Below, in pieces: positions 1 to 28,379 of a stretch of 28,843 bases of DNA. Position 1 is the first letter of the stretch. Each line of letters opens with the position of its first letter. The notes under the pieces are model-generated. The model saw only the letters and a program-made list of their open reading frames with translations, ran no database searches and was not told where the DNA came from. Source of the DNA: a virus (taxonomy: Duplodnaviria > Caudoviricetes); IMG/VR virus record IMGVR_UViG_3300033067_000911, positions 1 through 28,843 of that record. One strand, given 5' to 3'. The position numbers were made by a program, and so were the translations under genes.

Positions 1-71
1 GGGCTGTCGTTGTTGCCGCCTTGCAGGCTGTGGCGGTTCATCAGTAGCGCAATGTCTCGGTCTGTCAGCAT
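1..71 (-). CDS. Cassette A ORF, 5' part only (MLTDRDIALLMNRHSLQGGNNDS...), hypothetical
   Basis: ATG at 71 preceded by AGGAG; frame stays open to the window edge; same position relative to attC as the other cassette ORFs. Confidence 0.65.
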   Translation of the reverse strand, partial: MLTDRDIALLMNRHSLQGGNNDS

Positions 72-100
72 TCCTAGCTCCTATCGCCTTTCCACCGGCC

Positions 101-165
101 GGCTAACACCTCGTTCGAGGTGGACCTCCCCCTAGCGGCTCGGCCACTCAACTCGAACGTTAGGC
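101..165 (+). repeat. attC site 1 (65 bp)
   Basis: R'' GGCTAAC, 5-nt spacer, L'' GTTCGAG ... L' CTCAAC, 6-nt spacer, R' GTTAGGC; L'' has one extra C relative to L'. Confidence 0.88.
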
Positions 166-462
166 CCTGCGGTTGCGAATGGCCGCTTCCTTGCGCGCCA
201 TCCACAGCGGATCGTCCACAGTCCACGCGGCGTCCCAGATCACCTCGATCGCCGGGTGGTTCTGCGGCAGCGCCCAGGTCGCAAGGCCGAGCAGTCGGTT
301 TGCCATCCACTCGCGTGGCCGGCTGCGCTGGAACGAATGCGGGCTTCCAGGCCTCCGCACAACGTCCAAGCTCAGCACCAGCGGGCCAATGAACAGCACG
401 CGCCCCGCGTCGGGATCGCGCCGGAACTTGAGGCGCCAGCGCTTCTGAAAGTGGTACACCAT
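160..462 (-). CDS. Cassette B hypothetical protein (100 aa)
   Basis: ATG at 462 with GGAGAGG RBS; TAA stop lies inside R' of attC1. Confidence 0.75.
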   Translation of the reverse strand: MVYHFQKRWRLKFRRDPDAGRVLFIGPLVLSLDVVRRPGSPHSFQRSRPREWMANRLLGLATWALPQNHPAIEVIWDAAWTVDDPLWMARKEAAIRNRRA

Positions 463-478
463 CGTTGTCCTCTCCGTT

Positions 479-513
479 GCCAAGCGGGCGGCCGCTCAAG
501 TCAAACGTTGGGC
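479..513 (+). repeat. attC right half-site (L'-R' only)
   Basis: CTCAAG-TCAAAC-GTTGGGC; 479-509 is identical to 1708-1738; no R''/L'' arm to its left. Confidence 0.8.
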
Positions 514-890
514 GTCTCAGGCACCCAGCGAGCAACGCCACCGTCGTCGAACTGGATGCGTTTGAAGTCCTTCAGCCGCAGGAACGCGCAGCCCCACGGC
601 GCGTGGAAGTGCTGTGCCACCATGCCGACGTGGATCATCAACTCGGGCAGCAGCACAGCGCCGAAGCGCTGCATGAACTCCGCGCCCGCGAACTTGCCGC
701 GCCTCTCTTTGCGAAGCCCGGCCATGAAATCTTCGAACTGGTCTGCGTTCCTCGGCGCGGCTTGAAGCGCGTCGGGGAAGATCGTGTGGTAGCTCTCCAG
801 CAGGCGCGTGAGTTCGGCCAGGCTCTTGCACTTCGGCAGCGCCTCGTTGTAGTCGCTGGCCTGGTCGCTTGTGTAGCTGATCGGCTTCAT
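501..890 (-). CDS. Cassette C hypothetical protein (129 aa)
   Basis: ATG with GAGGA RBS; reads through R' (ends PNV) and stops in the L'-R' spacer. Confidence 0.8.
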   Translation of the reverse strand: MKPISYTSDQASDYNEALPKCKSLAELTRLLESYHTIFPDALQAAPRNADQFEDFMAGLRKERRGKFAGAEFMQRFGAVLLPELMIHVGMVAQHFHAPWGCAFLRLKDFKRIQFDDGGVARWVPETPNV

Positions 891-914
891 TCAGTCCTCT
901 GTTTATTCGTCGCC

Positions 915-1002
915 GCCCAACCCTTCACTCCAGCGGACCCCGTGTAGCACTGCGCATCACCACCGTGCGCGGGCGGGGTCCGCTGAGTTCCAAACGTTAG
1001 GC
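915..1002 (+). repeat. attC site 3 (88 bp)
   Basis: GCCCAAC-CCTTC-ACTCCAG-CGGACCCCG ... CGGGGTCCG-CTGAGT-TCCAAAC-GTTAGGC; long stem, extra C in L''. Confidence 0.9.
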
Positions 1003-1257
1003 GTCAATACCAGCGGCCTGGAACAGCACGCCTGCAGCAGCCTTCTCGGCCTCTTCAAGCGTCGCGCGCTCGAAGGCCGCTTCCGCCTTGTCCCAGCCGT
1101 CGTCGTCGTCGCTGAAGCCAAGCGCGAAGCTGCACACGCCGAGGCCGGGCGGCTCGGCGTACCAGCGCAGCTCGGGCGCGCCCGTCTCGTCGCTCCGGTC
1201 GATCTTGGCTAGCAGTTGCCCGTACTTCGCGCTCTCGAACAGCTTCGCAAATGCCAT
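997..1257 (-). CDS. Cassette D hypothetical acidic protein (86 aa)
   Basis: ATG with AGGAG RBS; TAA inside R' of attC3. Confidence 0.85.
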   Translation of the reverse strand: MAFAKLFESAKYGQLLAKIDRSDETGAPELRWYAEPPGLGVCSFALGFSDDDDGWDKAEAAFERATLEEAEKAAAGVLFQAAGIDA

Positions 1258-1276
1258 GTCCTTCTCCTGCCACCGC

Positions 1277-1334
1277 GCCTAACTGGGCGCTCAAGCGGGA
1301 CGCCTATCGGCGCCCCTTAGCTTCGACGTTAGGC
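1277..1334 (+). repeat. attC site 4 (58 bp)
   Basis: GCCTAAC-TGGGC-GCTCAAG-CGGGACGCC-TATC-GGCGCCC-CTTAGC-TTCGAC-GTTAGGC; classic short 59-base-element architecture. Confidence 0.92.
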
Positions 1335-1628
1335 CTCAAGAGCTAGTCGTGCGCGGCGCGTCATTTCCAGAACCGCGGCGCGTTGCCAGTCTCGATCATC
1401 CGGGCCATCGGTGCGGCCAGAAAGCGTGTCGCTCCCGTACTGGCGCACGGAGTCGAGTGCATCGCGCAGCCGCTTGATCTCGGCGCGAGCCTCGGTAAGT
1501 TCGCGGGCAGGAGTCAAAGCGGCATGCATCGCGCCTGCGCCACCAAGCGGCACTGCGGCATCTGTCAACTGGACGCAATACCCAACTTGCATCGCGTGCA
1601 GTGCCTTCAAGTCAATGTCACCAGCCAT
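1329..1628 (-). CDS. Cassette E hypothetical protein with coiled-coil segment (99 aa)
   Basis: ATG with AAGGA RBS; TAA inside R' of attC4; heptad-like segment ELTEARAEIKRLRDAL. Confidence 0.8.
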   Translation of the reverse strand: MAGDIDLKALHAMQVGYCVQLTDAAVPLGGAGAMHAALTPARELTEARAEIKRLRDALDSVRQYGSDTLSGRTDGPDDRDWQRAAVLEMTRRARLALEA

Positions 1629-1655
1629 CGCTATGTCCTTTCGCTCCGGCTACAC

Positions 1656-1742
1656 GCCTAACCCTTCCTTCGAGCGGACCGCCTATAGGTTGGTTCGCTC
1701 GCTCACCGCCAAGCGGGCGGCCGCTCAAGTCAAACGTTCGGC
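1656..1742 (+). repeat. attC site 5 (87 bp)
   Basis: GCCTAAC-CCTTC-CTTCGAG-CGGACCGCC ... GGCGGCCG-CTCAAG-TCAAAC-GTTCGGC; extra C and extra A on the left arm. Confidence 0.9.
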
Positions 1743-1743
1743 C

Positions 1744-2100
1744 TCAGCCCACCGCGAAGGTGTTGCCGTCGCCAGCGCCGACCGGAGTCAGTCGAGGCGC
1801 GTAGCTGTCCTGCACCACGTCGCCCATGTAGCGCGTGTGCAGTCCGCTCGGGGCCTGGCACGTCACGTAGGGCGGCGCGTGCGGGTAGTCGGCGCTGCCG
1901 GGGCTGCTCACCCAGAACGGCTGATACGGCGCCCAGGCCGGCGGGTACCGGTCGATGATGACGGGCGTCGTCATCGGCAGGCGGGGCGCGAACAACTCGG
2001 CCAGTTGCGCATACAGGTCGCGCGCCTCGTCGATGGTCATCGTCACGTCCTTTCCGCCGCGCGGCGTCAGCACGATCTTGGTCAACTTCAGCTTGTCCAC
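1744..2100 (-). CDS. Cassette F hypothetical protein, Pro-rich C-half (118 aa)
   Basis: GTG with AAGGA RBS; TGA lies just outside R' of attC5 (1-nt gap). Confidence 0.8.
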   Translation of the reverse strand: MDKLKLTKIVLTPRGGKDVTMTIDEARDLYAQLAELFAPRLPMTTPVIIDRYPPAWAPYQPFWVSSPGSADYPHAPPYVTCQAPSGLHTRYMGDVVQDSYAPRLTPVGAGDGNTFAVG

Positions 2101-2127
2101 AGTCTTCCTTTCGCTACGGCCCCAGAG

Positions 2128-2197
2128 GCCGAACTAGTTAATCGAGCGGGCCCGCCGAGGCAGGGCCGCGCTTCGTGTTAGCTTCAAAACGTTAGGC
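2128..2197 (+). repeat. attC site 6, degenerate or hybrid (70 bp)
   Basis: R'' GCCGAAC ... R' GTTAGGC with a GC-rich central hairpin, but L'' (AATCGAG) and L' (TTAGC) do not pair. Confidence 0.7.
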
Positions 2198-2272
2198 ATC
2201 AACCCACGCGCCACCGCCTAACTCATCGCTTGAGGCGGGACCCTTCGTCGGCGGGTGTCTTCGGTGTGTCAT
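2192..2272 (-). CDS. 26-aa mini ORF (MTHRRHPPTKGPASSDELGGGAWVDA) reading through the attC half-site
   Basis: ATG overlaps the upstream TGA (ATGA 2269-2272); TAA inside R' of attC6; below the ORF-track size cutoff. Confidence 0.5.
   Translation of the reverse strand: MTHRRHPPTKGPASSDELGGGAWVDA
2216..2243 (+). repeat. attC left half-site (R''-L'' only), terminal site of the array
   Basis: GCCTAAC-TCATC-GCTTGAG-GCGGGACCC; no matching L'/R' downstream. Confidence 0.65.
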
Positions 2273-2436
2273 GGCTTCCTCTTCGTTGCAACAGTCACGA
2301 ACTGCGCCCACTCCCCGCGCTGCACCGCCTCTTTGATCGCTGCGTGTACCTCACGAGGGGCGAAGATGCCGCGTAGCTCAGGGTCGCGGCGCTGGCGGTA
2401 CTCGGCGCTGCGCTGGCTTTGGGGCTTTGCTTGCAT
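2269..2436 (-). CDS. Small basic hypothetical protein (55 aa), possibly DNA-binding
   Basis: ATG just after the upstream stop; QRSAEYRQRR basic helix. Confidence 0.6.
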   Translation of the reverse strand: MQAKPQSQRSAEYRQRRDPELRGIFAPREVHAAIKEAVQRGEWAQFVTVATKRKP

Positions 2437-2437
2437 G

Positions 2438-2731
2438 TCAGATGCCGCTAGGTCGCGCAAGCTCTGCAGCGATCTTTACCGAAGCGTCGAAAAGTCTGCG
2501 CAGGCGGGCCAGCTCTGCCTGAGCGTCACGCGCCATCACGCGCCACTCTTCGCAGCCCTTCTCCAGCCATTCGAGGTGGTCAATGGCTCCCGTCACGACA
2601 TCAAGCCGCACGGTCACCCACTCCGCGTGCGGGTTCGGATGCGGCCCCTTTGGGATCGAATCGGCCAACGCCTTGCGAAGCTCGCTCGCGTCCCCGGTGT
2701 CGGTGACAAGGGCCTGTTCGGCCCCGCTCAT
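2438..2731 (-). CDS. Hypothetical protein (97 aa)
   Basis: ATGA-coupled to the upstream gene; coiled-coil-like C-terminus. Confidence 0.7.
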   Translation of the reverse strand: MSGAEQALVTDTGDASELRKALADSIPKGPHPNPHAEWVTVRLDVVTGAIDHLEWLEKGCEEWRVMARDAQAELARLRRLFDASVKIAAELARPSGI

Positions 2732-2934
2732 TGTGCACCCCCAACCGGCAGACGGTCGGTGCGGTAGCTGATGATCGCATCCCGTTCGTCGCCCTCCTCG
2801 GCGATCAGGTACTCGCGGGCTTCTTCTTCGGTGCAGCCAGTTGCCTTGACAACGCGCTCAACGCGGACGGCTTCTGTCCAGTTCTTGCGGTTGCTGACCC
2901 ACGGCGCGTAGAGGCTGACTTGTTGGGTGCTCAT
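2728..2934 (-). CDS. Small protein with UBA/NAC-like three-helix motif (68 aa)
   Basis: GGAGAG RBS; VVKATGCTEEEAREYLIAEEGDERDAII resembles the NAC C-terminal / EF-Ts N-terminal UBA-like pattern. Confidence 0.6.
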   Translation of the reverse strand: MSTQQVSLYAPWVSNRKNWTEAVRVERVVKATGCTEEEAREYLIAEEGDERDAIISYRTDRLPVGGAQ

Positions 2935-2964
2935 TTTCTCTCTCCGTTGCGTTGCTATGCCTCT

Positions 2965-2992
2965 ACTATAGGCGTGTTGCGCGGAACGTCAA
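2965..2992 (-). promoter_or_regulatory. Sigma70-like promoter pointing toward the cassette array
   Basis: Minus strand TTGACG-16 nt-TATAGT in an intergenic gap, upstream of the RBS and ATG at 2934. Confidence 0.7.
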
Positions 2993-2998
2993 GGGGAG

Positions 2999-3469
2999 TT
3001 ACAACTTTGCGCGTTGATAGCCTTCGAGCACGTCGGCCGCTTCGTCCATGAGCATTGCGTCCATGTTCACGTCCATGGCATGCGCGGCCTTGCGCAGCCG
3101 CGCGACTAGCGTTCCGTTGTGGTCACCTGGCGGGCCTCCGCCGCATGTCACGCGCTGCTCATCCGCGCTTTGCTCGCGCAGGTCGATCAGCGCTTGCTGC
3201 ATACGGTTCCAGTAGTTGATCGCCTCGCGCCGCGTGGCCCTGTTGAATCCGGGGTCCCTTGGCGAGTACATCGGGCATTGCTGCTCGTAAGGCCAGCCCT
3301 TGCCGACAGCAAGCTCGGCGCGGTCGCAGTTGACCATCTTCGTTATCGTGCCTTCGCGATCAACCTCCCACAGTGACGGCGGACCGCCACAGCAGGCGCA
3401 GTTCAGCGCCCTTGGGTCTTCGGGGCGCCATTCAAGCGGCTCGATCGTCTCTTGCCATCCGGTGCTCAT
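2999..3469 (-). CDS. Lar-like (restriction alleviation family) zinc-finger protein
   Basis: N-terminal LNCACCGG and TRREAINYWNR, similar to the Lar-family pattern (CPFCGG ... EAIxxWNRR). Confidence 0.55.
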   Translation of the reverse strand: MSTGWQETIEPLEWRPEDPRALNCACCGGPPSLWEVDREGTITKMVNCDRAELAVGKGWPYEQQCPMYSPRDPGFNRATRREAINYWNRMQQALIDLREQSADEQRVTCGGGPPGDHNGTLVARLRKAAHAMDVNMDAMLMDEAADVLEGYQRAKL

Positions 3470-6053: not shown

Positions 6054-6283
6054 TTGACGCTTCTCCTGCGCAGCGCTTCGCATGTCTCTAGCTGGTCATG
6101 CAGGCGGATGAGCGGGGCCGCAAGGTCAAGGCACTCTTTGCGGATGGCTTCGATGTCGTTGGCGTGGATGGCGTCTTGCAGCTCGTTCCACTCTTCTAGA
6201 CAAACGCCCAAGGCCTCATGCATGCTGGTGAAGTTTCCGTAGCGTTTATCGGCCTTTGCAATGAGGTCATACAACCTACTCAT
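6050..6283 (-). CDS. MazG-like all-alpha NTP pyrophosphohydrolase (77 aa)
   Basis: EEWNEL ... ECLD acidic motif (EExxE...ExxD). Confidence 0.65.
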   Translation of the reverse strand: MSRLYDLIAKADKRYGNFTSMHEALGVCLEEWNELQDAIHANDIEAIRKECLDLAAPLIRLHDQLETCEALRRRSVK

Positions 6284-6486
6284 ACATGCCCCCATGTTTC
6301 GTATGATCTGATCTTCTCAATGGTCCGGTAGTGCACGCCGAACTTGGTCGCCAGTTGCTTTGCGGTCAGGTGGTCGCTCTGTCTGACCTCTCGCACAGAC
6401 TCTGGCGTCATCCGCGCGTGAGGTAGTTCGTTGCCGCGCTTGGCGTTGGCCTTGGCGGCCCACTGCTGGTAGTCGAACCGGTTCAC
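6280..6486 (-). CDS. Stand-alone HTH resembling the C-terminal domain of phage HNH endonucleases (68 aa)
   Basis: RGNELPHARMT..VREVR...LATKFGV...TIEKI....TWGHV; no HNH catalytic domain. Confidence 0.65.
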   Translation of the reverse strand: MNRFDYQQWAAKANAKRGNELPHARMTPESVREVRQSDHLTAKQLATKFGVHYRTIEKIRSYETWGHV

Positions 6487-7349
6487 GCAAACAACCCCTG
6501 CGTCTGCTGAGTTGCGCCAGCGAGGTTTGCGACGGCCTGCTGGTAATAGCTGGCCTTCAACTCGACGCCGACGAACTTGCGATTCATCTCGATGGCGACG
6601 TACCCCTCGCTACCAATGCCCATGAACGGACTCAGCACGATGTCGTCAGGATTTGTCCACAGCATGATGCCGCGCCGGATGACTTCCAGTTGCAGCGGGC
6701 AGATGTGCCGCTCGTCGTCGTGCTCACGGGCACTTCGGTATTGCAGGGTGTCGGACGGGTTGATGTCCATCCACACCGGGCTCGCGACCTTCTGCCACAA
6801 ATCGACGGGGTACTCTGCTCCATGGGTGACGCGCTCGCACTCGCCTGGCGCCCGCACGGTGATGAGATAGTCAGGGATGCCCATCCGGCACATTGCAGCG
6901 TTCTCGCGAACACTCTTGTGCAGCAGGCCGAGCGCCTTGGTCCGCTGCATCGCCGTCACAGGGTCTTTCCAGATCGTCGCCTTCGCATGGAAGATGAAGC
7001 CGTGACGCTCGAACGCACGCAGGAGATTGCCAGGGAAGTCCTTCAGGCCGATCACGCCGTCACGTTCCTTGCTGCTCGGCATGTCCATGCAGTGGAAGCT
7101 GATATTCCGCCCGGGCTTGATGACGCGCCGCAGTTCGGCGATGAGGTACTCGAAGTGCTCGAAGAACTCCGCATCGTTGCGGACGTTGCCCATGTCGCGC
7201 GGGCTGTTGCTGTAGGTGTAGAGGCTCGCGAACGGCGGGGAGAAGATGCTGTAGCCGATGGAGTGATCCGGCAGGCCTTTGAGCACCTCAACGCAATCCC
7301 CACGGTATGCGGCATAGCGGTCGTTCACAACTTGGTCGATGCAGTTCAT
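6483..7349 (-). CDS. DNA amino-methyltransferase (N4-C/N6-A, beta class)
   Basis: Catalytic SPPF near the N-terminus, SAM-binding SPFMGIGSEG near the C-terminus. Confidence 0.92.
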   Translation of the reverse strand: MNCIDQVVNDRYAAYRGDCVEVLKGLPDHSIGYSIFSPPFASLYTYSNSPRDMGNVRNDAEFFEHFEYLIAELRRVIKPGRNISFHCMDMPSSKERDGVIGLKDFPGNLLRAFERHGFIFHAKATIWKDPVTAMQRTKALGLLHKSVRENAAMCRMGIPDYLITVRAPGECERVTHGAEYPVDLWQKVASPVWMDINPSDTLQYRSAREHDDERHICPLQLEVIRRGIMLWTNPDDIVLSPFMGIGSEGYVAIEMNRKFVGVELKASYYQQAVANLAGATQQTQGLFA

Positions 7350-8728
7350 GCGGCGTCTTTCAGGAATGAAGGAATGGAGACGGCTTTCGTCGCCTCGTAT
7401 GGGTTCGTTTGACGGGTCATGCCGACGACTTCGGCCATCACTGCGTCGTGAGTCTCGGCGCTCAGTGACTCGGCCATCTGGTGCGCCTCGCGCTCCTTGC
7501 GCTTGAGGTTCGCGACGACGGCGCCCTCAGCTTTGCTGGCGAAGATGTGAACGTGAACCGGTCGCTTTTGTCCGAACCGCCAGCAGCGGCGGACGGCCTG
7601 ATAGTAGGCCTCGTAACTGTCAGTCACGCCGACGAAAGCCATTCGCGCCGAGTGCTGCCAATTCAGGCCCCATCCGCAGATCGAAGGCTTGCTGACGAGC
7701 ACGCGGAACTTGCCGGCCGCGAAGGCCCGCAGGCGATCTTCTTTCGTCTCGGTGTCGTCAGCCCCGGCGATCTGGACGGCGCCGTTGATGGCCTTCGTCA
7801 GCGCGTCACCCTCGGCGTTCAGGTCGCACCATACGACCCATGGCTCGTTGGCTTCTGCGTTGACGATGCTGGCGCACTCGGCGACTCGATCCTCTAGCGA
7901 GGCGCGCCTTGCTGCCCTGCGCTCGCTGAGCGTCACTGCCTCCATGGCGAACAGCATGCCATCGGCGCTTGCCTCAGTCTCGACTAGGTGCTCATGCAAC
8001 ATGAGCGGCGGCAGTTCATAGGCCGAATCATCGAACCCAAGATCGGAAGGCTTGCGGATCAGCGCGCCCCACGAACAGACCCAGCGCCAGAAGGCGTGTT
8101 TTGCATGCCCCTTCAATCGCCATACGCTCGTGTCCCCGCCGTCGTGGGTGAAGAACTCGGCCAGCATCTCGGCACGGGTGCAGACGCCCAAAAACTCGGC
8201 ATGCGTTCCCAACTCTGACCAGTCGTTAGGAGCCGGTGTTGCCGTGCATGGCAACTTGAACGGCGTATCCCTGAACGCGTCCGTCATGCGACGGAAGGTC
8301 TTCGCATCGTGGTGCTTGATGATGGACGACTCGTCAGGGGCGATGCCACCGAAGATCGAGCAGTCGAACTTGTGCAGCCGGTCATAGTTCGTCACGTTCA
8401 GGCCCGGCCGAACGTCCTCAGCCTCGCGGCAGATCGTCACCGGGATGCCGACAGACGCGCCCTCCAAGACAGTCTGCGGCGCCACGGCCAGCGGCGCCAG
8501 AATCAGGACAGGCTTGTTTGTGTAGCGCGAAACCTCGGCGCCCCATGCCAGTTCCATGCGCGTCTTGCCGAGCCCGGTATCCGCGAAGATCGCAGCCCGG
8601 CCACGGCGCAGCGCCCACTTGGTCAAGGCGGATTGGTGGCCGAACATTGGCGGAAGCGATGGCTCGCGCGTGATGCCTGTCGCCGGGACGGTGGACAGTT
8701 TGCGAGAAACGAATTCGTCGTAGCTCAA
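7346..8728 (-). CDS. SNF2-like superfamily 2 helicase/ATPase (460 aa)
   Basis: DTGLGKT Walker A, DESS Walker B variant, TAT motif III, QAVRRCWRFGQ motif VI; TTG start with GGAGAGG RBS overlapping the upstream TGA. Confidence 0.9.
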   Translation of the reverse strand: MSYDEFVSRKLSTVPATGITREPSLPPMFGHQSALTKWALRRGRAAIFADTGLGKTRMELAWGAEVSRYTNKPVLILAPLAVAPQTVLEGASVGIPVTICREAEDVRPGLNVTNYDRLHKFDCSIFGGIAPDESSIIKHHDAKTFRRMTDAFRDTPFKLPCTATPAPNDWSELGTHAEFLGVCTRAEMLAEFFTHDGGDTSVWRLKGHAKHAFWRWVCSWGALIRKPSDLGFDDSAYELPPLMLHEHLVETEASADGMLFAMEAVTLSERRAARRASLEDRVAECASIVNAEANEPWVVWCDLNAEGDALTKAINGAVQIAGADDTETKEDRLRAFAAGKFRVLVSKPSICGWGLNWQHSARMAFVGVTDSYEAYYQAVRRCWRFGQKRPVHVHIFASKAEGAVVANLKRKEREAHQMAESLSAETHDAVMAEVVGMTRQTNPYEATKAVSIPSFLKDAA

Positions 8729-11835: not shown

Positions 11836-11930
11836 AACGCACGCGCCTATGCCCAGTTGGGAAGCCGCTGCTGTGGCGCCTGGCCGATTGGGCGTGGCGC
11901 GTGGTGTTCTTTTTCAGGGGGCCGCGATGA
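11832..11930 (+). CDS. 32-aa hypothetical peptide
   Basis: AAGGAGG RBS; GTGA and ATGA overlaps at both ends. Confidence 0.5.
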
Positions 11931-12133
11931 TCAAACTAACGCCACGCCAGAAGGAGGTGTTCTCCTTCATCAGAAAGCACATCGGCAACGCTGGCCGGCC
12001 GCCGACGCGACGGGAGATTGCCGATCACTTCGGCTGGTCCTCCGCGAACGCTGCCGAGGATCACCTACGAGCGCTGAGCCGCAAAGGCGCGATCACGATT
12101 GATGCGGGAAAGTCTAGGGGGATTGTGCTGTGA
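11927..12133 (+). CDS. LexA DNA-binding-domain-only protein (68 aa)
   Basis: LTPRQKEV...[29 protein letters not shown]....GKSRGIVL follows the LexA N-terminal domain; no linker or peptidase domain. Confidence 0.88.
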
Positions 12134-12243
12134 GCATGCTGCGTGACTTCATCAGCACATACCGCCAGTACCGCAAGGCACACGGCGTCATCTACAGCGC
12201 CCGTATCGCGTACGGGTGTGCCATCAAAGGATGCCCATTTTGA
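12130..12243 (+). CDS. 37-aa hypothetical peptide
   Basis: GTGA overlap upstream and TTGA overlap with the ERF start; exactly fills the gap. Confidence 0.55.
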
Positions 12244-12893
12244 AGAACATCGCAACCGCGCTGGTGAAGGCGCAACGGGAGTTCGGGCCTGCGCTCAAGA
12301 GCAGCACGAATCCGCACTTCAAGAGCAAGTATGCCGATCTGGCCGCCTGCGTCGAGGCGGTCATTGATGGCCTCAACAACAACGGCATCGCGCTCATCCA
12401 GCCGATGCACGAGAGCGACAACGGGGTGACCGTCGAGACGCTGTTTGTGCACGAGTCCGGCGAGATGCTGTCGGCCGGGAAGCTCCACGTCCCGGCAGCG
12501 AAGCAAGACCCGCAGGGGTACGGCTCTGCGCTGACCTACGCGCGCCGGTACAGCCTCATGGCGGCTTGCGGGATCGCCCCGGAGGATGACGACGGGAACG
12601 CGGCGAAGAAGCCTTCAAAACCGGCGCTTGAGAAGGCCTTCGCTGCGCCGCACAAGCCTACCGATGGCGCCATGGAGGCGCTACCGGCCGACGAACGCCA
12701 GTACATCAAAGAACTCGCCGATGATGTCTGCGCGATCGCCGGAGACAAGTCGCGAGGCATCGCTACCGCCTTCGACAGGATCGAGGTCGAGGGGCTGGAC
12801 AATGACCAGATGGTCGCCCTGTGGTCGCTGCTGCCGAGCAACGTCCGCAGCGGGCTCAAGGCAGAGAAGGGGCTGCGCATCGGGGCTGTGTAA
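12240..12893 (+). CDS. erf: ERF-family single-strand annealing protein
   Basis: NPHFKSKYADL, HESGE and QGYGSALTYARRYSLMAACGIAPEDDDGN motifs. Confidence 0.93.
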   Translation: MKNIATALVKAQREFGPALKSSTNPHFKSKYADLAACVEAVIDGLNNNGIALIQPMHESDNGVTVETLFVHESGEMLSAGKLHVPAAKQDPQGYGSALTYARRYSLMAACGIAPEDDDGNAAKKPSKPALEKAFAAPHKPTDGAMEALPADERQYIKELADDVCAIAGDKSRGIATAFDRIEVEGLDNDQMVALWSLLPSNVRSGLKAEKGLRIGAV

Positions 12894-13162
12894 TGTGGTC
12901 GAAGAATAAGCCGCGCCAGACTGCCCTAGAGGCCGCGCACGTCTCCAAGGTGGTCAGCGTGGACTGCGTTGTATGCGATGCGCCAGCGCCGAGCGAGGCT
13001 CACGAGCCGGAACAGGGGCTGTGGTTCGCGAGCGTGGCGTTGTGTACCGAGTGCCATAGAGGCAACGGTGGTTGGCATGACACGCGGCTTAGGTGGAAGT
13101 TGCGCAAGATGACAGAGCTGAAGGCGATCAACGAGACGCTGCGCCGCGTCGCGATGCTGTGA
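12893..13162 (+). CDS. Ref/DUF968-like zinc-binding HNH-type nuclease (89 aa)
   Basis: CVVC...EAH...ALCTECHRG...H. Confidence 0.7.
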   Translation: MWSKNKPRQTALEAAHVSKVVSVDCVVCDAPAPSEAHEPEQGLWFASVALCTECHRGNGGWHDTRLRWKLRKMTELKAINETLRRVAML

Positions 13163-13626
13163 ACTGCTTCTTCACCAAGACCCTATCCGGCACGCTAGCC
13201 CCGGCCGACTCAGAGACTGCGGCCTACGTGGCGCGGCTGAAGTTCGGGCAGGGCCTGCGAGCCGAGGTGAAGCGAGCGCGGAACATCCTCTTTCATCGCC
13301 GGATGTTCGCGCTGCTGAACTTCGCCTTTGACTTGTGGGACTGCCCTGAACTAGAGTATCAAGGCCAGCCCGTTGCGAAGAACTTCGACCGATTCCGCAA
13401 GGACATCACGATACTCGCGGGATTCTTCGATGCCGTGACGAACCTGCGCGGCGAGGTGAGGCTAGAGGCAAAGAGCCTCGCCTTTCACAACATGGGCGAG
13501 GAAGAATTCGAGCGCGTCTATAAGGCAGTTCTAGGCGTGGTCTGGGATCGCATCCTACGGTCGAAGGGCTATGAGAGCCCGGAGAAGGTTGACGCAATAG
13601 TGCAGGAACTGCTTAGGTTTGAGTGA
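13159..13626 (+). CDS. DUF1367-family protein (155 aa)
   Basis: RNILFHRRMFALLNFAF...FDRFRKDITILAGF...AKSLAFHNM.EEEFERVY pattern. Confidence 0.8.
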   Translation: MNCFFTKTLSGTLAPADSETAAYVARLKFGQGLRAEVKRARNILFHRRMFALLNFAFDLWDCPELEYQGQPVAKNFDRFRKDITILAGFFDAVTNLRGEVRLEAKSLAFHNMGEEEFERVYKAVLGVVWDRILRSKGYESPEKVDAIVQELLRFE

Positions 13627-25212: not shown

Positions 25213-25829
25213 TTCACCACCCGCACCTGTAGAGAGCCGCCGCCCTGCCGCATCGTTGAGCGGTTCAGGCCTGAAATCGCGGACTTGAGCATCCCGAACC
25301 AACCATTGATGCGCTCGTCAGCCCCGAGGAACGGGGCGCTTTCCATCAGGGCGGCATAGAGCAGAACACCGGGGGCATTGGTCAGCAGCCAATTCGTGTC
25401 AGCGTCAGCACTGAACGCCGTTAACGCCTTGTAGTAGTCCAGCGTATAGGACGAAGCTGAGCCGGGCACCTTGATCGCGTTGTCAAGGTAGGTGTACTCC
25501 ACCGGAAGGGCTGTGCTGTTAGCCACTTCCGAGAACCGCTCCGGCGGAATGTAGCCTAGGCTCCACGAGGCCCCGTTACTCGATACAGCGACGCGGATGG
25601 GCTCCAGAAAACCGGTCGGGAACGCGATGGAGCCTGCGGAGATGGTGCCCGTAGCCTGCTCCTGCATCGCCGGGATGCGCAACGGCTGCGACGGGTAGGG
25701 CATGTCCGCGCCGTAGTTGATGCGCTGCATCCCGAGCGTGATGAAGTCCGGGATGTACGAAGTCAGGTCGGCGCGGTTCAGGTAGCTCGCTACCGCCGTT
25801 TTCAGTTCCCCATAGGTGGTGATGCTCAT
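25209..25829 (-). CDS. Head-tail adaptor protein (206 aa)
   Basis: ITTYGELKTAVASYLNRADLT..IPDFI and TNWLLTNAP..LLYAAL.E..PFL motifs. Confidence 0.82.
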   Translation of the reverse strand: MSITTYGELKTAVASYLNRADLTSYIPDFITLGMQRINYGADMPYPSQPLRIPAMQEQATGTISAGSIAFPTGFLEPIRVAVSSNGASWSLGYIPPERFSEVANSTALPVEYTYLDNAIKVPGSASSYTLDYYKALTAFSADADTNWLLTNAPGVLLYAALMESAPFLGADERINGWFGMLKSAISGLNRSTMRQGGGSLQVRVVK

Positions 25830-26359
25830 AGCTCACTTGGCGAAACGAGCACGACGAAACCGCCCGGCGTGCGTTGGAATGACTGGAGGCAGAAGCGGTC
25901 CGTGATCTTCGGGAGCCACCACTCGGGAGGCTCTTGGATCAGGTGCGCATTCCTGCCGTCGGGGAGTGTTTTCCCGGCCGGGACGCAGGAGACAGTGAAT
26001 AGCCCGACACGGAGCGTGAGGCGCTTCAAGTCATCAAGCACCTCGAACAGGCACTCTGGCTCAATGTGCTCAAGGACATCGATGCAGGCCACCATCTCCG
26101 CTGGCTCAGGGGCCTTTGCGTACTGAGGAATGGCGGGCTCATACGGGATGTAGTTGAACGCCGACTTCGCCAGCCGTTTCTCGTTGATCGTTCGGATCAG
26201 CGTGAGCCTGGAGCCAGCCCCGTAGTCCAGAAGCGTCTTGACGCCGTGCGAGTCGATGACCTTCGCCACCATGGGTGCGTACTCTGCGGAGGCGACCCCG
26301 TAGAGGGTCGTCTCGTGCATATGCCGCTGCTGTTCGCGGTATTCAGGGCTGATCAGCAC
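25826..26359 (-). CDS. Class I SAM-dependent methyltransferase (about 177 aa)
   Basis: LLDYGAG motif I; CIDVLEHIEP; DGRNAHL. Confidence 0.88.
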   Translation of the reverse strand: MLISPEYREQQRHMHETTLYGVASAEYAPMVAKVIDSHGVKTLLDYGAGSRLTLIRTINEKRLAKSAFNYIPYEPAIPQYAKAPEPAEMVACIDVLEHIEPECLFEVLDDLKRLTLRVGLFTVSCVPAGKTLPDGRNAHLIQEPPEWWLPKITDRFCLQSFQRTPGGFVVLVSPSEL

Positions 26360-27024
26360 GGGGCTATTGCCTTTCGATACTCTGCCCACCACTCGGAAGA
26401 CCTTTCAGCCTCGGAATACTCCGGGAAGCACGGGGTTCCAACGGTGTAGTGATTGAGCTTTGCTTCAGCGTCCGGGTATTCTAAGACGAGGTGGTTCCAC
26501 TCGCGCGGGAGTTCCCCGATGCGGTCATCCTCCAGCCATTCGAACCGGTGCAGGTGAGAGCCTTTGGCTTTCTCGACGTAGGAGGGCGTCAAAACCCGGT
26601 TTCTGGCGTTCCCGCAGGCCCACAGCATGACGCTTGACCAGTTCTTGCGGGGATAGTCCTCGTTCTTGGCCCCGAGATACTTGGTCGGGTGCTTGGTCTT
26701 GTAGTCGTGCTTGACGACCTTCACAGCAGAGTAAAGGTCGCGCTCGGCCCAGAGTTCGGCGATGTCTGCCTTTACGATCATGTCGCCATCCACAAAGATC
26801 GCGTGCCCAGAAAACCCCATCATCCAAGGGATGAGAAACCGCGAGTAGATGAAGGCGTTTGACCCGTCTGTATGGGTCTCCTCGTACTGGCGGAGCATCC
26901 CCAAATGCAGAGGGTGGAATGACACGGGCACCGATGCCCGCTCGATGATGGATTGGCAGCAGACGTGATACGCCACTGCCTCACGGGGGTCGAAGCCTAC
27001 GAAAACAGGGATTGTCTCAACCAT
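26353..27024 (-). CDS. GT-A fold glycosyltransferase (GT8-like, 223 aa)
   Basis: FVGFDPRE, SRFLIP, FVDGDM (DxD), RKNWSS, EWNHL and HYTVGTP motifs. Confidence 0.88.
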   Translation of the reverse strand: MVETIPVFVGFDPREAVAYHVCCQSIIERASVPVSFHPLHLGMLRQYEETHTDGSNAFIYSRFLIPWMMGFSGHAIFVDGDMIVKADIAELWAERDLYSAVKVVKHDYKTKHPTKYLGAKNEDYPRKNWSSVMLWACGNARNRVLTPSYVEKAKGSHLHRFEWLEDDRIGELPREWNHLVLEYPDAEAKLNHYTVGTPCFPEYSEAERSSEWWAEYRKAIAPC

Positions 27025-28379
27025 TGCTTGATGCCGTCGAGTTCCCACTGCCCGAGCTTCTTTTGCCGGAACAGCTTGACGCAGGAGTACCAAGGGAGCG
27101 AATCCCCGGAGGCCCCGTAGCGCCATTGGGATGTTTTGGGGATGCCGGCAGCACAAGGAACACCCAGAGCGCCGGCCACGTGAACGGCCGTGCTCTGCAT
27201 CGCCACTACAGCGTCAAGCGAGGCAAACAGCGCAGCCGTCTCGTCATAGTCTCTTGCAATGGTTGCTTGCGGATACTGCACCAAGTCAATATCCGGGTAC
27301 TTGGCCCGAAACTCGGTGATTTCCTGAGCGGCGTCCTTGTATTGGAGGCTGACCCACTTTGCCGGGATGGTGCGCATGATCTGCGCCATTTCCTCGTGGC
27401 TCCACCTCCGATACATCGCGGCGGTTTCCTTCAGCCCCCCGGTCCACGCGATGCCGATTACGGGTTTACCCTTGTCCTTCCACAGCGCCTTCCACATGAG
27501 CACGCGCTCGGGGTCTGCTTTGAGGAACGGAGTGCCGGGGAAGTCTTCCGCCTTCTGGCGGAACAGTGCCCCCACTTGCATGGCAGCGATGGAGTAATCG
27601 ACCTTCTGGTCTTCCTCGGCCCAGTTCAGAACCTTGGCGCTGCGGGTGCCGTAGACCTTCGCCTCGGGGAATGACCGTTGGAACAGGTTAGCCAGCCGAG
27701 CGTCGCAGTCGATGATGACTTTCCCGGCACGCTTGATCGCATCTGGGATCATCGAAGCGGCGCATACTTCGTCGCCGATGCCCTGTTCTCCGAAGATAAC
27801 GACCGATCCACCGGGTTCGCCATGCCAAGTCGGCTCGCCCCCGTAGTTCCACGCAATACGCTGCGGAGACCCGACGGAAGCCTCGTACAGCCGCCATCCT
27901 TCTTTCCACTCTCCCGAGGCCAAGAGGCAAAGCCCCATGTTGTGACGTGACTTGAGGTGCTCGGGGTCGATCTTGAGCGCCTTTTCGCTGAACTGGCGCG
28001 CCTTGTCGAAATCTCCCATCTGGAGATGGACCGCGGCCAGGTTCGTGTAGATCGTCAGCCGCGTGTCGTCGTCCCCGGCTTTGAGTTGGGTCAGTGCTCG
28101 GGCATAGCACGCCTCAGCCTCGGCCATCCGCCACAGGGTATCGCAGCACTTCCCGAGGTTGATCCACCCCACAGGATTGGACGGGTGCGCCGCCGTGATC
28201 TGCTTGCAGACCTGATAGGCCAATGCAGGGTTGCCTTGCTTCTCCAGCATGAACGATGCGAGCAACAAACCCTTCGGGTCGTTCGGCTCTTCCGACAGAT
28301 GCGGCGACAGGATGCGCCACGCATCCGGATACTTGCCGGACTCCGCGAGTTCTCGCGCTTCGTTCAGGTCTGCCGCCAA
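26997..28379 (-). CDS. TPR-repeat + GT-B (GT9-like) glycosyltransferase (460 aa)
   Basis: N-terminal TPRs; GWRLYE, EQGIGDE, IGIAWTG, SLQY, HVAGALG and WRYG...PWY...LFRQ motifs. Confidence 0.88.
   Translation of the reverse strand: MAADLNEARELAESGKYPDAWRILSPHLSEEPNDPKGLLLASFMLEKQGNPALAYQVCKQITAAHPSNPVGWINLGKCCDTLWRMAEAEACYARALTQLKAGDDDTRLTIYTNLAAVHLQMGDFDKARQFSEKALKIDPEHLKSRHNMGLCLLASGEWKEGWRLYEASVGSPQRIAWNYGGEPTWHGEPGGSVVIFGEQGIGDEVCAASMIPDAIKRAGKVIIDCDARLANLFQRSFPEAKVYGTRSAKVLNWAEEDQKVDYSIAAMQVGALFRQKAEDFPGTPFLKADPERVLMWKALWKDKGKPVIGIAWTGGLKETAAMYRRWSHEEMAQIMRTIPAKWVSLQYKDAAQEITEFRAKYPDIDLVQYPQATIARDYDETAALFASLDAVVAMQSTAVHVAGALGVPCAAGIPKTSQWRYGASGDSLPWYSCVKLFRQKKLGQWELDGIKQWLRQSLFS

Follow-up and report, generated by a model that had tools for sequence, protein, structure and literature searches.

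A cassette array of integron type with reversed genes in the early region of a tailed phage

The left end of the virus record IMGVR_UViG_3300033067_000911 holds a row of short genes separated by inverted repeats. This raises the question of whether these genes are mobile integron cassettes and how a phage might operate them. The initial annotation had described four units in which the R' box left of the gene is the exact reverse complement of the R'' box to its right, and had taken this as the footprint of a circular cassette opened at G|TT.

Phage context and attC sites

The window, i.e. the whole stretch of DNA that was analyzed, is the entire virus record (28,843 bases, linear, 74% complete). 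It encodes an O-like replication initiator, a helicase, a DNA methylase, ERF, NinB, an SU10 adaptor and an ejection protein and is therefore derived from a tailed phage. A LexA-like DNA-binding protein (PF01726) is encoded at 11849–12133 (+), and virion genes are interspersed with methyltransferase, glycosyltransferase-like and TPR genes (25826–28379, −). Distant blastn with positions 1–3000 gave no match among GenBank phages, and Rfam gave no match within 1–3200. The sequencing runs which carry parts of 1–3200 came mostly from sludge and wastewater. Eight of these runs were compared as contigs (X labels, including X2–X7 and X10); X2 and X3 are RNA runs which, seen as contigs, hold no strand or level information. 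The features of the window are as follows (score, bacterial attC model; z, bottom-strand hairpin).

1..159, +: truncated cassette with a minus-strand gene that begins at 71 and continues beyond the contig start
101..165, + as top strand: attC site A, score 54.3, z −1.87
160..462, −: cassette gene g0, 100 aa, no family; stop codon within the reverse complement of R'
479..513, +: half site, right arm only, a deletion relic
508..996, +: cassette u1, R' at 507, R'' at 915, own pair 8 bp
501..890, −: cassette gene g1, 129 aa, no family, reversed
915..1002, +: attC site B, score 63.0, z −3.26
997..1328, +: cassette u2, own pair 8 bp, common and uninformative box
997..1257, −: cassette gene g2, 86 aa, phrog_9037 of unknown function, reversed
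1277..1334, +: attC site C, score 47.0, z −2.88
1329..1736, +: cassette u3, own pair 7 bp, possibly chimeric
1329..1628, −: cassette gene g3, 99 aa, no family, reversed
1656..1742, +: attC site D, score 68.6, z −2.58, fully canonical, L boxes 7/7
1737..2191, +: cassette u4, rare GTTCGGC box pair, own pair 10 bp
1744..2100, −: cassette gene g4, 118 aa, no family, reversed
2128..2197, +: site E, hybrid or decayed attC, arms unmatched, z −0.44
2192..2260, +: gene-less relic unit, left-arm half site at 2216 (left-arm score 18.2)
2269–2436, 2438–2731 and 2728–2934, −: three small phage genes between the promoter-like site and the array
2965..2992, −: predicted sigma-70-like promoter facing the array, 10/12 matches
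12216–12893: ERF, annealing recombinase gene
13093–13626: NinB, recombination gene

The boxes of an attC site follow the order R''-L''-L'-R'. Sites were called with a model trained only on 172 bacterial attC sites, which replaced an initial scorer that had missed sites A and C and had a noisy null. In the 28.8 kb of the window this model called sites A to D only, all on the + strand and with scores of 47–69; site E was not called, and 20 shuffles gave no hit. The layout R''-5 nt-L''...L'-6 nt-R' with conserved AAC/GTT is present in sites A, C and D. The spacer of site B measures 7 nt in the window and 6 nt in X10. L-box pairing reaches 6–7 of 7 positions in sites A to D, and site E fails the layout. 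An extra C at position 4 of L'' on the + strand of all four sites gives an extrahelical G on the bottom strand, in agreement with the extrahelical G and bottom-strand rule of attC (PMC2727003, PMC8946536). Furthermore, all seven sites or half sites scored higher with + as the top strand. By their sequence, sites A to D are integron attC sites with the + strand as top strand.

Related arrays were collected with a right-arm pattern, which found 110 viral loci and at least 171 bacterial genome rows (in 7 of 64 parts of the set), and with a left-arm pattern, which found 9 viral loci. Long attC loops in the viral arrays L044, L086 and L294 often hold a ribosome site and a start codon on the bottom strand; small frames thus start inside these loops.

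Box pairing, circle junctions and movement of the units

Pairing between the R' and R'' boxes of one and the same cassette is textbook integron biology. All eight motifs of the initial annotation were found at their places, and the unit borders 508–996, 997–1328, 1329–1736 and 1737–2191 proved correct. The boxes of each unit pair with each other over 8, 8, 7 and 10 contiguous bp in this order. Within single sites the arms are often mismatched, as had been noted, and the in-array pairs reach 3, 7, 3 and 3 bp. The own pair matches in all four units, but the match is informative for unit 1 (GTTGGGC) and unit 4 (GTTCGGC) only. GTTAGGC, the box of units 2 and 3, accounts for 58% of these boxes in the viral arrays, and the R' at 996 pairs over 9 bp with the R'' of unit 3 versus 8 bp with its own R''. 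For the complete match in the window a permutation gave p = 2/24, or 6/120 including the empty unit 2192–2222, and the box frequencies of the population gave 0.002. Taken alone, the four matching pairs are weak evidence.

The junction of each circularized unit folds better than the in-array site (by −3.3, −3.3, −2.4 and −9.4 kcal/mol for units 1 to 4), as expected from the circle reading. This test is blind to the top strand because either strand choice rejoins the same boxes. In a swap test with six tails the own tail was best for units 1 and 4 and marginally best for unit 2, with the R boxes mostly unpaired (0.25). For unit 3 the own tail was not best, and the tail at 996 paired better. Units 2 and 3 may be chimeras.

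Across the viral arrays, the own R'/R'' pair is perfect in 187 of 239 units from 61 contigs, compared to a mean of 117 and a maximum of 137 in within-contig permutations. With one unit per contig the own pair was perfect in 52 of 61 cases versus 27 for the in-array pair, and the circle junction was more stable than the in-array site in 203 of the 239 units. Hence chance hairpins or terminators between phage genes, against which the initial annotation had already argued, have a practically negligible probability. The p value of 0.08 for the four-pair match alone would still allow them; they are refuted by the attC model, with its scores of 47–69 and no hits in the shuffles, and by the 187 own-pair matches, and 1–3200 contains a single terminator-like hit versus 2.7 expected. 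In the viral arrays an identical R-box pair with its flanks recurs around unrelated genes, as if genes had been replaced within a retained frame; seven of nine units which begin like u1 also end like u1.

Units were also found next to different neighbors, as expected of mobile cassettes: u1 on both sides, u0 and u4 on the left side, none shown for u2 and u3. In X10, u1 is aligned over 504–990 and continues to G|TT, and both flanks differ from those of the window. Thus, u1 has moved with exact borders. Other left neighbors of g0 extend up to 147–159 in five runs (X2, X3, X4, X7 and X10). X3 carries an intact R''-L'' after 479 which is complementary to the R' at 159, as predicted by the circle model. 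In X4 and X7 unit u4 has another left neighbor from 1734 onwards, and in L294, an unrelated phage contig, a u4 homolog keeps the rare box pair (13 bp) among other neighbors. These cases, together with the attC scores, uphold the reading of the units as integron-type mobile cassettes opened at G|TT. At the left end, the truncated cassette has a homolog in L057 (89.7% over 116 bp), and the left box of L057 complements the R'' at 101.

Among 13 homologous unit pairs, 10 of them in changed context, the interior on the R'' side was more alike in seven and the upstream interior in one. The interior of the own attC was identical in only two of the ten changed-context pairs, and one unit pair with 99% identity has both attC interiors changed. 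L057 and L294 carry different interiors behind the same R''; consequently, exchange near R'' also happens.

The array also decays in ways that do not follow the cassette borders. Positions 479–509 are identical (31 bp) to 1708–1738, the right arm of site D. This repeat could be left over from a second u3 copy or from a different cassette whose site belongs to the same family; similar sites occur in X10. Deletion joints in the eight runs (966–1001, 1415–2234, 1317–2253 and 939–2269) ignore G|TT, and the close relative L295 has lost u2 to u5 without regard to it. The right arm of site B is deleted in X4, X5 and X6. X7 carries a matching right arm after 2170, where site E of the window is unmatched. 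At the position of the relic unit 2192..2260, probably the oldest end of the array, relatives end in different half sites, and 2269–2427 is conserved in them. Joints from 2427 to 2935–2973 in X4–X6 skip two genes of the window. Overall, cassette content varies among close relatives. Neither a circle nor a clean G|TT-to-G|TT excision joint was seen in the eight runs; this is no evidence of absence because contigs drop rare variants. The array has thus also been eroded and remodeled by other recombination, probably by the ERF and NinB of the phage.

This decay permits a further reading, in which the inherited attC repeats now serve mainly as short homologies for the annealing recombinase of the phage (ERF, NinB) and genes are swapped without IntI or circles. 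Both proteins are encoded in the window, all deletion joints ignore G|TT, near-identical genes occur with different attC interiors on both sides, and the window contig holds no IntI. Nevertheless we consider this reading rather unlikely, since u1 is bounded by G|TT on both sides in X10, the box pairs are unit-specific in 187 of 239 units, and related phages possess attI-like heads and whole intI genes (see below).

Integrase genes and attI-like sites in related phages

No match to the recombinase family PF00589 was obtained anywhere in the window, a record that is 74% complete and whose array is cut by the contig end. Likewise, no attI-like site lies within the window, the array head being off the contig. 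Scans with anchor genes for the missing head gave only a short relative, L295, and a weak hit, L296, and did not recover it; the lack of intI therefore applies to the contig only.

The search for IntI in related phages covered 50 out of 65 candidate loci, the remaining 15 being for the most part contigs shorter than 11 kb. IntI above the TIGR02249 cut-off was found in 3 of these 50 viral records and N-terminal pieces in two more; none of the eight records with at least 90% completeness had an IntI above this cut-off. Phage IntI of this kind matches PDB 2A3V at 3e-80. All five carriers hold tail, head, lysis or primase genes. In each of them intI lies at the (top-strand) head of the array on the bottom strand, co-directional with the cassette genes and 41–59 nt from an attI-like G|TT. 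One carrier of an intI piece, L057, shares the cassette that is cut by the contig start of the window. In a phylogenetic tree a branch (99/96) separates the three whole phage IntI from 27 bacterial IntI, although the phage branches are long and the bacterial rows only 27. For one phage IntI at least 120 relatives with 69% or more were found, on contigs of at most 56 kb.

A profile of the attI-like sites from the five heads matched 10 times in 92 loci, on each occasion at an array head; one match is a training site, and the others mark 9 further viral array heads, at a chance level of 3 hits in 358 kb. Complete records without IntI carry such sites as well (G012 and G044), which points to a supply of IntI in trans.

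Bacterial intI genes are often under LexA control. No LexA-type box was present at any of the five phage intI heads (200 nt each); this comparison is uneven, with 200 nt for the phage heads and whole loci for 15 of the 27 bacterial ones.

In L310 a phage integrase (phrog_1, 6073–7365) follows directly after intI in the same direction, forming tandem tyrosine recombinases. The intI remnants L312 12325–12654 and L313 12373–12735 are reduced to approximately their N-terminal 100 residues and border directly on the late operon end. Virus Rctr41k (KX853513) has an IntI-like gene in a phage operon (L344, 4680–5678; 46% to the L309 protein), and no attC site was called in the 11.6 kb analyzed.

Reversed cassette genes and the proposed mode of operation

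In a classical cassette the gene lies on the top strand and ends at its own attC site. The five cassette genes of the window are all encoded by the minus strand. They run opposite to the attC top strand and in the direction of the phage early genes, and three of them stop within the reverse complement of R'. Gene strands were called with a codon and ribosome binding site score trained on long genes of the window phage, since calling by longest open reading frame was too noisy (160 reverse and 77 forward among viral units). The score was 31.7 vs 4.1 for g1 (10 homologs) and 29.8 vs 3.6 for g4 (16 homologs). Scored in the same way, 231 of the 239 viral units and 58 of the 61 viral contigs are reversed; of 162 bacterial units 124 are forward and 37 reversed. 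Only two clear forward units were seen among the 239, in L023 (573-bp unit) and L092 (726-bp unit), and these are candidate captured host cassettes. Twelve of the 162 units in bacterial assemblies are clearly reversed (L127, L166, L158, L170, L188 and L191); they may stem from prophages or binned phage contigs or be cassettes with their own promoter.

If minus were the true top strand, a normal forward array would simply have been misread. The R boxes are symmetric and three stop codons lie in the box on the minus strand, as this would require. This is highly improbable, however: the extra L'' base, the 5-nt and 6-nt spacers and all arm scores favor +, the same + pattern yields forward genes in bacteria, the site interior travels on the R'' side in X10, and intI and attI lie at the + head in all five related phages.

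The cargo was compared with known protein families. Pfam gave no family for g0 to g4, PHROGs matched g2 only, and PADLOC matched none of 8 proteins. In the ESM Atlas g1 had no usable match, and the matches of g4 were limited to unnamed viral clusters below 0.9. Relatives of g1, g2 and g3 sit in phage operons without attC. A g1 relative of this kind was found in L293 and a g2 homolog in L001. Homologs of g3 cover residues 46–97 only; these C-terminal homologs have another attC at their end in L002 and L096 and no attC in L003 and L004. Among 212 viral cassette proteins none matched any of 94 bacterial ones and 54 matched another viral locus, in a small sample with overlapping loci unmerged. PHROGs matches do not separate the two pools (12 of 40 viral versus 9 of 40 bacterial cassette proteins, drawn from the 212 and 94). 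In L086 (2700–3050) a homolog of the gene 2728–2934 and its upstream promoter-like region adjoin an attC site; compared with 2728–2992 of the window this suggests that promoters may travel in cassettes.

These data also bear on the view that a host chromosomal integron block was captured once by the phage and then frozen, i.e. an ordinary host-derived CALIN. The sites fit a model from betaproteobacteria-rich bacterial arrays, 29 of 40 such bacterial genomes encode IntI, and captures of this type are described by Qi et al. 2023 (PMC9892861). On the other hand, most host cassettes are forward, the relatives of g1, g2 and g3 belong to phage operons without attC, the viral cassette proteins match other viral loci and, in this small sample, none of the bacterial ones, and content differs among close relatives. 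A single capture is consequently very unlikely.

We favor an integron cassette array in the early region of the phage, whose circles were likely inserted at G|TT by IntI and whose reversed genes are likely transcribed from a promoter of the phage in the direction of the array head, and give this reading a probability of about 0.78. IntI would insert cassette circles at G|TT at the head, left of position 1, and the oldest units would then lie at the right end, where decay is worst. The promoter-like site 2992–2965, the only one in 1–3200 (0.3 expected), reads the bottom strand into the array. From this predicted promoter transcription would proceed through the array towards attI and intI. With intI and an attI-like site at the head in line with the reversed genes, one early transcript would span old cassettes, new cassettes and intI, and a bottom-strand phage transcript would express only the reversed genes. 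The integrase might be encoded in the missing part of the contig or act in trans from the host or another phage.

The array shares with classical integrons (class 1, Vibrio VchIntIA and sedentary chromosomal) the order R''-L''-L'-R', the extrahelical G and the G|TT crossover (PMC2727003, PMC5027507, PMC8946536), and own R'/R'' pairing of 9–11 nt is described there (PMC2727003). Unlike in classical integrons, the window genes oppose the top strand, and instead of Pc a phage promoter would drive their transcription in the direction of attI; intI of the related phages starts 41–59 nt from G|TT, with no LexA-type box in five of five. Whole cassettes inserted backwards have not been seen according to PMC5027507; here site and array agree in direction and the gene alone is turned. 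The array thus works like an integron cassette array in its attC sites and cassettes, with genes that are not forward.

A CALIN is defined as at least two attC sites on one strand within 4 kb with no integrase nearby (Cury et al. 2016, 10.1101/030866). The window has four whole sites on one strand in 101–1742 and no integrase, the latter for the contig only; it differs from a CALIN in being phage-borne, in its reversed genes and in the array head missing from the contig. On a contig without the array head, the array may belong to a complete integron or be a CALIN. Phage CALINs have been published, and of six phage sites that were assayed, five were recombined by IntI1 (Qi et al. 2023, PMC9892861). 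They resemble the present case in that attC sites are clustered in phage genomes without a visible integrase, and in DNA methylases, which also occur in the cargo of arrays related to that of the window. In contrast, the published TJE1 array is forward, its three sites and annotated genes all being on + in our own check. The accessible text of PMC9892861 reports neither array-wide reversal nor a phage-specific IntI group; TJE1 is the one of its 17 CALINs that was compared here. Neither array-wide reversed cassettes nor a phage IntI group was found in the literature, of which few subscription journals were covered.

In a wider and more tentative reading, to which we give slightly less than even odds, phages would run a mirror-image integron. 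Their own IntI lineage and a compact attI, shared in trans by integrase-less phages, would shuffle reversed cassettes that derive from ordinary early genes of phages and form a pool of their own. Many host integron cassettes reportedly encode anti-phage systems, as stated in a 2024 preprint. If the wider reading is true, the reversal could, speculatively, keep captured host cassettes silent inside the phage, and phage cassettes silent inside the host. Genes that occur in both forms, with attC or lacking it, would then show cassettes being born, and the origin of cassettes would become testable. The R'/R'' footprint itself is ordinary integron biology and marks these phage genes as real cassettes. 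A large reversed phage pool would contribute site-specific shuffling to phage mosaicism, in addition to its known causes. Through the relatives of g1, g2 and g3, which are plain genes of operons lacking attC, it would also connect phages with the unsolved origin of cassettes.
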